From Escherichia coli O127:H6 str. E2348/69 (lineage in GTDB: Bacteria > Pseudomonadota > Gammaproteobacteria > Enterobacterales > Enterobacteriaceae), in the NCBI RefSeq assembly GCF_000026545.1, contig NC_011601.1: DNA of 64,000 bases; one strand, 5' to 3'. Each line of letters starts with the position of its first letter. The stretch's first letter is position 1. This document shows positions 33,801 to 39,800 of the stretch, piece after piece. A program made the position numbers.

Positions 33801-36800
33801 GCCAGTTCGGATGGTGTAATCGTGTTTCCTATATAAACAACCAGGTTATCATCAATCCTTATTTTCCTTTGTTCTGCCAGTATGTCAAGTGCTTCATCCA
33901 GAACACATTTTTTCCTGAGAGCATATGGGGCATATTGTAAAATATAACTTTTCTGGAATATGTAACCTGCTGTTGTGATAATTCTTTTCTGAAGCCATTT
34001 ATCAAGTTTCTCAGCCGGGGATATTTCCCGAAGGGATTCAAGTTTATATATAAGATGCTTGAAATAAAATTCAATGAGATAAATGGCGCTATTAGTACTT
34101 TCCAGCGTTATTACTGTCGATTCTGGATCTTTCTCCAGTTCCAGAATTGCGGCTATCCTGACAACCTGCTCTCTTTTTCTGACAATAATGTCTTCAAAAG
34201 TACCCATATGAGGATTCTGTCTGACAGTATCCATATTTTCTTTGTGAAAGATCTCCAGTGCGCGGGATGCTGCATTTGATAATGTCATGCAGATGCGCTC
34301 TTCACTTTTTGCACGTCTTTCTCTGGATGCTTTCAGAGAGTCTCTGATCTGACTGCCAAAACTTTTCTTACGAAAACAGCTTGCACATTGCTGCGTCACA
34401 ACTGGAGTGGCAGTATGCGGTTCTGTCGTCATTATTTTAATTGCTCCGGGTTCGCAAAATAGCAGCCGGGCCAGAAAGCCATTGCCCCGGATCTGATCGC
34501 CAGTGAGAGTAAAAAACTTATCAAATATTACCGGTTGAGTCAGTATAAGTATAGTGAGACGGACATCATTCAGCCGGAACCCGGGTCTGGATGCCCGTTC
34601 AACGTTGACGGGTTGCCCACTCCATAATGTGTTGTACAGTGCCGATTTGCGTTCGAAACGCTTATCCAGAATAGTACCTCCTTCGTCAGACAGCAACAGA
34701 AGAGAGGGGGACTGGCTGAGTTTCAAAGCTATCCCTTCTGGTGTCGCGTCATTAACGATGAGAACCTGTTGTGTGGGAGGTACGGGTTTATTTGCTATAC
34801 ACTTTTCAAGTGCTGCTCGTGCAGCAGCAGCATTTTCCGGGGATCTTTCCATTTCCTTTTTATATCTCCGCTCCAGTATTTTTTTATCTGTTGTCCACAT
34901 CTCCATCATTCGGTCATAGTTTTTCTTATCGTCGATATATGCCTGATGTAGTTCTTCTTCTGTTTCATGAACAGGAGCGATTAATTTTGCACAGGCAGAG
35001 GTTTTTCCACTGCCTGATGCTGATGAACGACACATAAATATCTGAAGGCTGGTACGCTGTCCTCCGGAAAGTTCAACTTCATGCGTATCCTGGACTGAGG
35101 CAGCCTTGACCGTCAGCATAACAGACAGCAGTATTTCACGGCTTATTCCCGTTCCTTCATGCATTTCATTAAGTAATGCCTGGCTCCTGTCAGGCAGTTT
35201 AGTTATGTCAAGTTCAGGGAGTGATAGTTTTGTCGTCATCATTAAGTTCCTTTTGTTTGTTTTCAGGTTCAGACCAGGCTGGTGCCATATGTAACGTCAG
35301 CCACTCATCGATGGCAGATGCCCGCCAGCCAACGGATGCACTTCCAAGCCTTATCGGTTTGGGAAAGGTAGGGTCGTGGTATTTCGAGGCCGGATTTATT
35401 TTCACGTAAATCGTGGACCTGGATATACCCAGCAGCCGGGTAAGTTCAGCCATACGCAGGATGCGTGAAGGTGTGTCAAGCTGTCCGGTTTGATTTGACA
35501 TATTGTTCTCCATATGCATTGCACGTTGTGGTATCAGTTTGATAGCTTAAGGTCGGAATGTCCCCTGCGATAAAATGCAAACCAACCGGAGAGCACAGCA
35601 TATGCGCACATTTACAAATCTGTTGTATGATATTTGTACTGTTCTGGGGTTGTTCAGGGAAGGCGAGAACCCGGCACACAAGCGGAAGAGCACTAATTTC
35701 GAAATGCATCAAAAATTCTGGGATCAACGTTACAATGCGATCAGTCGTATTATTGATGCTGAAGGGGTGTATAGTCAGGAGCAACGGCGGATCATATATG
35801 CCCGGTATGAACATTTTTATTACATGATGAATTCTTATCCAGTTCATTCCACACTAAAATCTGAATTCCTTCGCAGCTATTGTCTGCGCACTTTTGGGGT
35901 TATTTTTCTTGTTGTAGATATTTATAATACATACAGACCAGAGAATGACTCTGCTTTTTATTATCATATTTATAATTTTTTACAGAAGTCGTATTGTCCT
36001 TGTCTTGATCACTCTGATACAGAAAGCGATGAAGCTGCTGTTAAACGTTATCTTCGGGAATATCTGGCTGAACTGGGATTCAACAAGGAAGATTTTCATG
36101 AAAATGGAAAGTTGTATGCTCTGGGGAAATATACAGGAACTATTCGGAGGGATAACGGGAAAAGCAAGAGTCTGATGAAACAATATATCATGTCTATCAA
36201 AAATGAATATAAAAAGGATTATCGGGAGAAGAAACTGGATAAGGATGAACTGGAGAAATTACTCAGGAATATTGATAAATTCTATAATGCATTTTATTCA
36301 TTAAGTGTCTTGCTTGATATACAACGAAAGACGAAGATACTTCAAAGCCTTGCATATTATCTCAGAGTGTTGGTGAGAAAGGGGCTCTGGACTCATGGTT
36401 TATATGGTTACGCTGAGCAATATCTTTATGACTTTACCAGCCTGGATACAACGCCTTATGCAAAAAAATTACTGGAAATGTTTTATAAGTTTGAAAACAG
36501 TGCAGAAGGGACATTGGCTCGTTATAATGTATCACTTGATGATAAATCTCAGGAATATATTGCCCGTCTGAAAGATCTTGTATTTAATATTAATGAGAAG
36601 AATGGTTGTGATGACGCATATCTGAAAATGATTATAAGTCATTTTGGGCAGTTGCAGAATGAGGCTGTTCATGTGACCAGCTGCTACGGAACACTTGCGG
36701 TGTACATTTGTCTGATAAGGAAAAATAAAATTAATGATGTGCTGCATCATTATGATGACATGGAAAGAAAAGGATTGTTTGCTGAATTACCTTCAGGATA

Positions 36801-39800
36801 TATCAGGGGGGCATTATCGTTGCTTCGGACAGCACTGGAGGTTAAAGTAAATAGAAAAAATATAAAGTATGGCTCGTTGTTTTATTGGCTTGACCATGTA
36901 AAAGCTCATCAGGATGCATTTATTGAATCAATACCACTTATTGAACCTGTATATAAGGAGGGTGAAATACAGTATGATGCGAACAATTTTACCCTGATGC
37001 GTGTTATTAAGATGTATAATTGTATGCTTGAAAAGATCAGTACGAAACCATATATAGCTCCCCCATATATTACAGGTTTGCTTGATGACGTAGAGAAAGT
37101 ACTGGATAAGATAAATATTCTGATAGATAAAGAGTATGTTTATGATGGTAAGACACTGGCTGAAGTCATTATGGAGAACAAAGTATTATCCAGTCGCAAG
37201 CGTAAAGATACTATGATAGGGCTTTTCACAGGCAGTAAGAAATATACTTTACTGCAATGTGTTGAGAAGCTTGGTGTATTAGTTCACTACGTGAAATCAC
37301 CGGTCGATGAAATTAAAAATGTGATGATGTTGTATGGCGATAAGGCCGAAAACAGGAACAGACGCAGAATGATATATGATGCGTTAACCATTATTTGTGA
37401 GGATGATAACAGGGCTAAACACCCTGATCTGTCGTGAACTCATCTGAGTTTGTTTTGAGTCAATAATCTTTATATCCCCCTGCTAATTTTGCTAACCATT
37501 AGCAAAATTAGCAGGGGGATTATCTATGTCTGGCAAGAGAAAATTCTATAATAGTATGATTTCTTTGTTTATTTTGTTTTTCAATTAGAATGGTGTGTTT
37601 TTGTGATCTATGTCTAATTGTTTTGTATTCTTAGCGCCATCCCATTCATGGGCAGATGTACATACCGCCCCTATTAGATTGATGGGTTGCATGTTCATTG
37701 TATCTGTAAAATATGCCAGTTTTGACATTAATACATAATCTGTAATTCGGTGTAAGCTCTTGTCTGGTGAATTATGTTGCGTATTCCGCTCTATTCGATC
37801 ACGGATTGGGCCAAATCATGATCGATTCGAATGCCAAACTGCGAACGATTCAGATGCCATTTTGCATTATGTTAGTGGCTTATTTTTCTTGTTCTTTTTT
37901 ACAGGTTATGTAAGTGTGATTATCCTGATTGCTGGTCACTCATTATATACTGAGTCGACAAAACAAATGAGTATTACTGAAGTTTTTATACAGTGTTCAT
38001 CTGTCTGGTCAGGTTAGTTAGTTCCGGGAGAATCACATTTATTTCATATACCATGAATAATTAAGGTTAATTAGTATTATTAGTGGGAGTTATGGTATTG
38101 TGTGTCTGTGCCGTATTGTTTGTGTGTTTGTTGTATAACTTATCTCTTTACGTGGTAATGTCACTCCTCTTTATGCTAAGTATTCTGTATGTGTGTAATG
38201 CATATATCTCCATACACTACGCAGTGAAGCATATGGGGGAAGCTGTATGGTGAATTATGTGTGTAATGTTGTCCTGTACGTGCTTAACACTGGTTACGTA
38301 TCGGAACACTATTAGAGCGTGTTATGACTCCGTTACAGTTTATAGGTATAGGTAAATATGATCTTTTCTGTATGGAACAATCTTCTTATGGTGTGTGGGT
38401 ATGTTCTGTATACCATTATTCTTTTATGCTACTGATTAAATACCCGTGGTCTCTCTCGGCTTTACTTAATGGTTCGACAATATTAATAGCGATGTAGCCT
38501 GTAGCTAGCCGATACTGAGTTTTGTGAATGTCAGATTACTTCCTGTAAAGAATTTAGTGGTGCTTCCTGAAACTCAATTCTATGAGGTGTGTTTTTCCAT
38601 TGTAATTCGTACTGGTTCTCAGTTTAAGAGAGTCTCACTGTATTCTGAAGTATTACCTCATTACAGTAATGCGGTAATACAAAACAGTTTTATCAGGTTG
38701 TCTGTACTGCTGGTTTACTTCCTTTATTAATGCCGTGGTACGGCGTTTCTCTACTCTCAGTATTTACGTAATTCTCTCTTCCTGTGAGTTTTATAAAGTA
38801 AGGACTATAAAATGTATAATGCCAATCCCAATTACAAAATGGATTTCATGATTCTGAAAGACGTGAATGAACACATGGATGGTATGTTTCAACGTTTTTC
38901 TAAACTGTTACCTTTCAGAATTGATTTTGCTTACAGGAAAGACACGCCCAGTTTCGGTCATTCCTGTAAGCACAGTATGTGTATGGAAATATACCGTTTA
39001 CTTTGCGAAACCCAGACGATGTTGGCGGGATATTACTGGGTAATGGAATATACACCAGACAAAGGGCTTCATATTCATTTTATCGGCTATCTGGATGGGC
39101 AACGTCACAAGAACTCTTATCAGATATCCAGGCAACTGGGAGATATCTGGAGGCGGATCACGGAAGGGGGGGGTTACTTTCACCTTTGCCGGGCTAAAGA
39201 CAAATACCCGGTGCGTATCGATCACGTGATGCACTATAGTGATAAGTCCGCGGTAGACAACTTACGTTACGCCCTTAGCTATCTGGCTAAACAGGATCAG
39301 AAAGAACACGGTATTATTCTGGGCCGTAGCAGGCTTCCCGAAAAAAGCAACCGGGGCCGACCACGACATAACTGAATTACGGGGGCTTATGTCCGAACTA
39401 TCGTAAGTTATCGCGTGGATTTGTCGTTAATGCGTAGCTTTGTCCTCAGCGCAGGGGACTATGACACTTCATCTTCTGGGGTGCTACCCCGTGGGGCAGG
39501 TACAGGTAACGCATATAGTTCATAAATCTGACAGTGATGAATTAGCTGCACTGAGGGCAAACATAACTTGAAGCTTATGGGATTGAATGGCGACGTAAAC
39601 CGCAGAGCCCTGTGCAGTGCGTTTCCGTATTATCCACGGATGAGAAAGTTGCGTTATTTTGTCGACTGTTTCGCGGGCGTGATGATGTATGGGCCCTTCG
39701 ATGGGAAAGCAAAAGCAGCGCTAAATCAGGGGACTCGCGGGCCTGCGCTAACAAATGGCAGCCGGGAATAGCTGTAAACTCCGGATAAAATGTGGGGACT

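Follow-up and report, generated by a model that had tools for sequence, protein, structure and literature searches.

The stretch of DNA analyzed here (64,000 nucleotides of contig NC_011601.1, hereafter the window) is 100% identical to Escherichia coli O127:H6 E2348/69, and its region running from efeUOB-phoH and an integrase gene (int) to a lifA-like gene corresponds to IE2, an integrative element of this strain (PMC5685641). Within IE2 we focused on one gene, 'gene X' or simply X (35602..37437, + strand), which encodes a 611-aa all-α-helical, soluble protein of an uncharacterized, alpA-linked family. On its left side, the island comprises a P4-type tyrosine integrase gene (32326..33543, +), a DUF3987 (YfjI-family) helicase/primase-like replication gene (33713..35242, −) and, in operon with the latter, alpA for a Phage_AlpA-type excisionase/regulator (35214..35501, −) that is co-inherited with X according to synonymous divergence (dS). 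A 100-bp divergent control region (35502..35601), delimited by spacer comparison, separates alpA from X. To the right of X follow an Inovirus-Gp2/YfjJ-like backbone gene (38812..39375, +) and an AEP-primase/SF2-helicase ('TOTE') backbone gene that is reduced to a truncated pseudogene in the window (39515..39844, +). The integrase, DUF3987, alpA, and Gp2-like genes were assigned by profile matches and PGAP annotation, with synteny as additional support for the DUF3987 gene; the pseudogene was recognized by PGAP and by island comparison. Two elements of an original prediction, made from the sequence of the window before our analysis, are borne out by this layout, namely that the island is of the P4-integrase/CP4-57 type and that X is divergent from alpA and upstream of the YfjJ/Gp2-like gene.

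The original prediction had further described a clean open reading frame (ORF) of 620 aa at 35575-37437. An uninterrupted ORF of this extent is indeed found in the ORF listing of the window (35575..37437, +), but position 35602 is the better start, giving 611 aa, because all homologues start at the equivalent of M(R/H)TF(T/A)NL, a Shine-Dalgarno sequence (GGAGAG) is located 8 nt upstream of 35602, and the ATG at 35575, replaced by ACG or TTG in other lineages, belongs to a conserved non-coding motif. PGAP uses the same start (WP_001258871.1, 'hypothetical protein', 611 aa). X is a real gene and not a chance ORF, since its dN/dS ratio is 0.17–0.24 relative to two E. coli relatives (0.25–0.27 for the DUF3987 gene), full-length homologues extend down to 20% identity and the AlphaFold2 model is confident. 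The gene is AT-rich and its product Lys/Tyr-rich, as had been stated: the GC content of the region is 0.36–0.39 versus about 0.50 in the chromosomal flank, and the protein contains 9.0% Lys and 8.5% Tyr, with a pI of 8.7. No transmembrane segment was found (maximum KD19 = 1.48).

X had also been called an orphan, a view that did not survive deeper searches. A word-indexed protein search retrieved E. coli proteins only, in two clades of ~93–100% and ~71% identity, and a second and third search of this type with the X family added little. Exhaustive HMMER searching of 1.84 billion representatives then gave 44 matches, ~15 of which are full-length relatives (~580–630 aa) from Enterobacterales at 20–33% identity. 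The family includes Escherichia, Shigella, Citrobacter, Klebsiella, Yersinia, Hafnia, Dickeya, Kluyvera, Edwardsiella, Xenorhabdus, Providencia, Proteus, and Morganella, where genera were named from cluster members, except for Xenorhabdus and E. hoshinae, which stem from a contig profile search with a 10-row alignment (4 loci). A structure search of the AlphaFold database (AFDB) added Leclercia, Pantoea, and Salmonella, as well as structural relatives at 13–17% identity and TM scores of 0.6–0.76 in Aeromonas and Burkholderia and weaker ones in Tolumonas and Pseudomonas. Conserved blocks of the family are YKYEQLYN, FYxHIHxF, NIR, LPxGYL..A..I..ALKIKL..IKNGSL, DANNxTIMRSIKxYN, and GLL..V..AL.KIN.

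The AlphaFold2 model of X, built from a 17-sequence alignment, is entirely helical with 28 helices (pLDDT, the per-residue confidence, 86.1; predicted TM score, pTM, 0.84). X is a soluble, all-helical 72-kDa protein of non-enzymatic appearance. In agreement with what had been noted before, inspection of the protein for Walker A/B and HExxH motifs revealed none, and no catalytic motif, enzyme fold or ATPase/nucleic-acid-enzyme feature was recognized. X lacked matches in Pfam (as did each of 17 family members scanned), NCBIfam, and PHROGs, in PADLOC-DB v2 (0 families at E ≤ 0.1), and among PDB sequences, whether searched by sequence or by profile. Foldseek comparison with AFDB50 yielded only uncharacterized proteins as global structural relatives, a search of BFVD gave no match at E ≤ 0.001, and local fold matches were limited to four-helix-bundle and sensor-type modules. 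Nothing on X was found in the literature on the X family, 'TOTE' and DUF3987 islands. X thus belongs to an undescribed protein family without a characterized relative by sequence or fold, residing in an element of a well-known type; as no characterized family was matched at either level, its function is undescribed, which upholds this part of the original prediction.

Two relatives of X, P0115 and P0165, which are 36% identical over their full length, carry an extra N-terminal domain of 260 aa resembling IS481 transposases (located at L017 10001-10780 and missed entirely by Pfam). Their matches to NF033577 (E = 3.7e-20 and 6.4e-14; 72.6 and 52.1 bits, respectively) stay far below the curated cut-off of 224 bits, so that neither qualifies as an IS481 transposase; the domain is confined to these fused relatives, and X of the window is without it. 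The first two catalytic Asp residues look substituted, and the domain appears degenerate. Fusion of such a helix-turn-helix (HTH) plus RNase-H-like module to X in one subclade hints at a DNA-associated role.

The position of X is kept with high constancy. In every one of the ~14 lineages examined, X and alpA are transcribed away from each other, alpA being the first gene of an alpA-DUF3987(-yfjJ) operon next to a P4-type integrase gene. The contexts compared were those of E2348/69, O104:H4, the serW island, the O157 OI-43/48 type, L007, L008, L011, L014, L016, and L017, and further those of Kluyvera, Edwardsiella hoshinae, Xenorhabdus, one metagenomic contig, and one IMG/VR contig; six distant homologues with 20–33% identity to X are among them. 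The alpA-X spacer of 100 bp in the window measures 59–110 bp in other lineages, with one O157-type record carrying a ~1-kb insertion. Cargo beyond X differs from lineage to lineage: GAP1/DO-GTPase, CRISPR-Cas I-E, CBASS plus type I restriction-modification (RM), a type VI secretion system (T6SS), iha/insertion sequence (IS) elements, or lifA-like genes; the serW island with X adjoins clpA and a T6SS. Gene order in the OI-43/48-type islands of O157:H7 is int> <X alpA> yfjI> gp2> AEP-helicase>, with X between int and alpA, while E2348/69 and O104 show int> <DUF3987 <alpA X> gp2> AEP-helicase>, meaning that the [X-alpA-DUF3987] block is inverted relative to O157. It is owing to this inversion that the Gp2/YfjJ-like gene with its conserved ~550-bp leader lies downstream of X in the window. 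The islands of O104:H4 and O157 have an intact AEP-primase/SF2-helicase gene (786 aa), which looks like a part of the backbone. A tblastn search of X against phage genomes gave no match. Five plasmid records were hit, but no hit combined high identity with full-length coverage, and at least two of the records have chromosomal flanking genes or are of chromosome size. Scanning IMG/VR uncovered two loci, both at contig ends, of which L032 shows the usual island layout.

These comparisons speak against the proposal that X occupies a variable cargo slot. The gene-neighbourhood comparison that had been suggested as a check was run on the islands, and it found X in a backbone position: X stays fixed beside alpA-DUF3987 in every context examined, while the genes beyond it change, cargo thus starting beyond X. 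With high confidence, X is a backbone gene of the island and the partner of alpA, not cargo. As a fixed divergent neighbour of alpA, X therefore most likely helps to run the island itself.

Evolutionary comparisons revealed a further bond between the two genes. Compared with that of the serW island, the backbone in the window is a mosaic: int, the N-terminal two-thirds of DUF3987, and gp2 are each ~95% identical, alpA and X uniformly ~78%. The dS amounts to ~1.0 for alpA as well as for X versus 0.17–0.39 for int, DUF3987, and gp2, with recombination breakpoints near 35239 and 37490. The shared dS and the breakpoints indicate that alpA and X travel as one cassette. Between lineages, X identity follows that of DUF3987 (84/71, ~30/30, and 26/20%), with AlpA staying at 44–76%. 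In a set of 5,426 complete E. coli genomes, 232 contain X and 230 an alpA-DUF3987 module of the window type. In two independent strains, L023 (ETEC4071) and L024 (EC2), X is interrupted by IS elements (IS2 and IS1, respectively) and DUF3987 by IS1. We considered whether loss of X requires loss of DUF3987; these two strains support the idea, but L025 contradicts it, so there is no strict dependence.

Upstream of X, lineage alignment revealed a conserved cis element (35558..35593, +) consisting of ATGTCCCCTGCGATAAAATGCAAACCAA followed by the Shine-Dalgarno sequence GGAGAG, and including a −10-like TAAAAT at 35571-35576. Its consensus, (A/C)TGTC(C/T).C...AAAA.GGA(A/G)ACCAA(C).GGAG, is kept in 8 of 9 lineages despite X proteins that are only 23–32% identical, while the remaining spacer is unalignable. 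Since RNAalifold found no structure (0 pairs, no consensus fold), we read the element as a putative promoter or operator acting at the DNA level. The annotated N-terminal extension of P0083 is spurious, because it contains this motif, and in the O157-type record mentioned above the ~1-kb insertion, which looks IS1-like by its sequence, separates the motif from X. A search for the motif near int was negative and turned up a different repeat there: two direct copies of GGCATAC at 32286-32304, ~25–40 nt upstream of int. The repeat is conserved ahead of int across five lineages, as two or three copies, which probably serve as arm-type binding sites for Int or AlpA/Xis. At the other end of X, 37 nt past the stop codon, lies an inverted repeat with perfectly matching 22-nt arms, a 3-nt loop and no T-run (37474..37520); an imperfect copy exists in the O104:H4 island and none in the serW-island lineage. 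It is the probable end of a monocistronic X transcript. Beyond it extends a 1.3-kb AT-rich stretch without a long ORF (37521-38811), whose first ~700 bp are variable between lineages and whose last ~550 bp constitute the conserved non-coding leader of the Gp2/YfjJ-like gene (38255..38811, +), which marks the distal boundary of the inverted [X-alpA-DUF3987] block and is 84% identical even in the O157 arrangement. This leader could be a long 5' untranslated region or an origin for the Gp2-like initiator.

Taken together, X is inherited with alpA, divergent from the alpA-DUF3987 operon, equipped with a conserved motif of its own as a putative promoter/leader, and monocistronic. The reading we tentatively prefer, as the most likely of those considered, is that X, without being an enzyme, serves the island as a life-cycle regulator or sensor at the AlpA switch. 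X would be made in the resting state and act at or together with the AlpA switch to determine the timing of island excision and replication, and specificity for a lineage or helper would follow from how fast X diverges. Such a role would be analogous, though without homology, to that of Stl in SaPIs or of the int-proximal iolg genes in PICMIs, both discussed below. Besides synteny and co-inheritance, the transposase-like fusion, the lack of enzymatic features and the PICMI precedent (PMC10803314) count in its favour. Several observations weigh against this reading. An AlphaFold2 model of an X-linker-AlpA fusion (12 paired rows) reached a pTM of 0.71, the value expected if AlpA were undocked, and so gave no sign of a direct complex, albeit in what is a weak test. 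No DNA-binding domain or HTH family was detected in X itself by Pfam (X plus 17 family members). In CP4-57, the same place is taken by the unrelated yfjH; the position divergent from alpA could be another accessory slot. The defence cargo bordering on X and its fast evolution are also compatible with an immune protein. Finally, a common E. coli lineage (L025) has a premature stop in X and an apparently intact DUF3987, such that X is not needed for stable carriage there.

The main rival holds X to be an anti-phage or phage-interference protein that works alone and became fixed on the border of the island's defence hotspot, a non-enzymatic sensor or blocker that would bind a phage component. Defence cargo does adjoin X in most lineages (CBASS, CRISPR I-E, type I RM, GAP1/DO-GTPase; AbpAB in CP4-57), X is AT-rich and monocistronic and diverges fast between lineages under purifying selection, and satellites are known to carry single-gene defences such as PICMI up2 (PMC10803314). 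Yet X, unlike each of the neighbouring defence systems, shows no turnover: its place beside alpA is retained even at 20% identity, and it has the recombination history of alpA; in O157 it even sits between int and alpA, outside the cargo region. With PADLOC and the phage genomes giving no match, as described, and the accession of X not found in the DefensePredictor supplements either, we consider this explanation rather unlikely, albeit deserving of attention. Still less probable in our estimation is a mechanical accessory of excision or replication. X could then assist the Int/AlpA excision complex as a cofactor, comparable to PICMI iolg, or serve as a loader/organizer for the DUF3987 helicase and the Gp2-like initiator. 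Co-inheritance with alpA and co-divergence with DUF3987 would suit such a role, as would the PICMI precedent (PMC10803314), the two independent strains in which IS-disrupted X is accompanied by IS-disrupted DUF3987, and the relatives fused to a transposase-like DNA-binding domain. It fits less well that X is transcribed separately, opposite to and not within the alpA-DUF3987 operon, that L025 combines a broken X with an apparently intact DUF3987, that X is devoid of nucleic-acid-enzyme or ATPase features, and that the fusion with AlpA gave no docking.

Two ideas put forward in the original prediction fared worse. X as an unrecognized type III secretion system effector of enteropathogenic E. 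coli (EPEC) is highly improbable: IE2 carries nleE2, nleB*, espL*, and lifA-like genes (PMC5685641), but X is not among the IE2 effectors listed there, and its homologues stay linked to alpA, i.e. to the island backbone, in islands with defence, T6SS or CRISPR cargo instead of effectors. Moreover, the N-terminal 15 residues of X are conserved, hydrophobic, and modelled with confidence as a helix (pLDDT 74–87), unlike a disordered secretion signal. A HEPN-like pattern had been noted, as a weak match, in RKGLWTH, the one Rx5H match in the protein (residue 268 of the 620-aa frame), and we give the idea of X as a HEPN-type RNase toxin next to no credence. It fails because the stretch is not conserved: in the 17-sequence alignment, RKGLWTH is restricted to the E. 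coli clade and falls into a gap-rich region in which neither R nor H is conserved, not even among the distant relatives of the 71%-identical clade. Furthermore, Pfam and PADLOC hold no HEPN family that X matches, and no antitoxin-like gene adjoins X.

Some further features of the window deserve mention. Next to int lies a 3'-end fragment representing a tRNA-Ser-like attachment (att) core, TGGCGGTGAGGGGGACCGCC (32103-32207, core 32152-32171), with a hairpin terminator at 32116-32139 preceding the core; ARAGORN detected no tRNA over the whole window. The same stretch gives a sub-threshold MicC-like Rfam match and is annotated as 'RtT sRNA' in O104:H4, labels that both seem to arise artefactually from the tRNA remnant with its terminator. 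Between phoH and the att remnant, outside the integrase gene, is a DUF2726 gene (31374-32060, +), found at the same site in another strain with a different island variant (L025). On the opposite side, the Gp2-like gene is followed by a string of pseudogenes (39515-41007) composed of the truncated AEP-primase/SF2-helicase, an IS integrase-core fragment, and a broken DNA-binding gene. A 287-aa AT-rich ORF (41032-41895, −), immediately downstream of the lifA/efa1-like gene (41858-49996, −; 2,712 aa) and overlapping its 3' end, bears the PGAP product name 'hydrogenase', which looks wrong.

Islands built on the int-alpA-DUF3987 backbone carry cargo of medical relevance, including the effectors and lifA-like gene of IE2 in EPEC, the tellurite/iha islands OI-43/48 of O157:H7 and that of O104:H4, and many anti-phage systems. 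X, a conserved ~600-aa protein at the alpA switch that escapes every annotation library, provides a concrete experimental handle on how these islands are silenced, induced, and mobilized. Our findings also correct a tempting mis-annotation, as a position at the edge of a defence hotspot need not mean cargo.

Several known systems invite comparison. With the hotspot cargo of P4 satellites (Rousset et al. 2022, PMC9122126), X shares the setting, i.e. an element with a P4-type integrase, alpA, a primase/helicase, and anti-phage cargo nearby; it differs in not being variable between related elements. The part of the island between 31.3 and 39.4 kb also departs from the P4-like definition of SatelliteFinder, which includes psu, sid, delta, and eps besides int, alpA, and alpha: apart from X, its intact ORFs encode only int, the DUF3987 helicase/primase, AlpA, the Gp2-like protein, and DUF2726, and no Psu/Sid/Delta-type function emerged from scans of five intact module proteins (X, DUF3987, AlpA, Gp2-like, DUF2726). 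In the PICMI satellites of Vibrionaceae, a gene of unknown function by int/alpA (iolg/icg), represented by many unrelated families, is required for excision and DUF3987 for replication (PMC10803314). X likewise is a gene of unknown function adjoining int/alpA in an int-alpA-DUF3987 element. However, iolg is small, overlaps int, and is co-directional with it, whereas X encodes 611 aa and has a putative promoter of its own, is transcribed divergently from alpA, and is found on the int-distal side in E2348/69. The yfjH gene of CP4-57 in E. coli K-12 resembles X by its position between intA and alpA, divergent from alpA-yfjI-yfjJ, and is uncharacterized as well. Its product measures 318 aa and shows no similarity to the X family that hhalign could detect (probability 0.3%), and we have rejected it as an X homologue. 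AlpA and YfjI of CP4-57 are more distant from their window counterparts as well (49% and 23% identity).

A further parallel is Stl, the master repressor of the staphylococcal pathogenicity islands (SaPIs), an all-helical, highly divergent protein encoded next to int and divergent from the regulatory/replication operon of the island, whose divergence sets helper-phage specificity. In Gram-negative islands of the alpA type, AlpA is believed to be the on-switch, as opposed to the relief of an Stl. X occupies the same position relative to alpA-DUF3987, is divergent from this regulatory/replication operon over a similarly short region (100 bp in the window, 59–110 bp elsewhere), and diverges fast under purifying selection. 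The likeness is positional: X is 2–3 times larger and without sequence or fold similarity to Stl, and no HTH family was detected in X, one subclade having the fused IS481-like HTH/RNase-H domain. As a more speculative extension, on which we would not yet place much weight, X and AlpA might form an exchangeable 'specificity cassette' of CP4-type enterobacterial islands, with X founding a new class of large, non-enzymatic, all-helical switch proteins. On detecting an incoming phage, or a signal from the host, X would control whether islands with virulence and immune cargo excise and replicate, which would make it the functional equivalent of Stl in Gram-negative bacteria, built on a fold unrelated to that of Stl.

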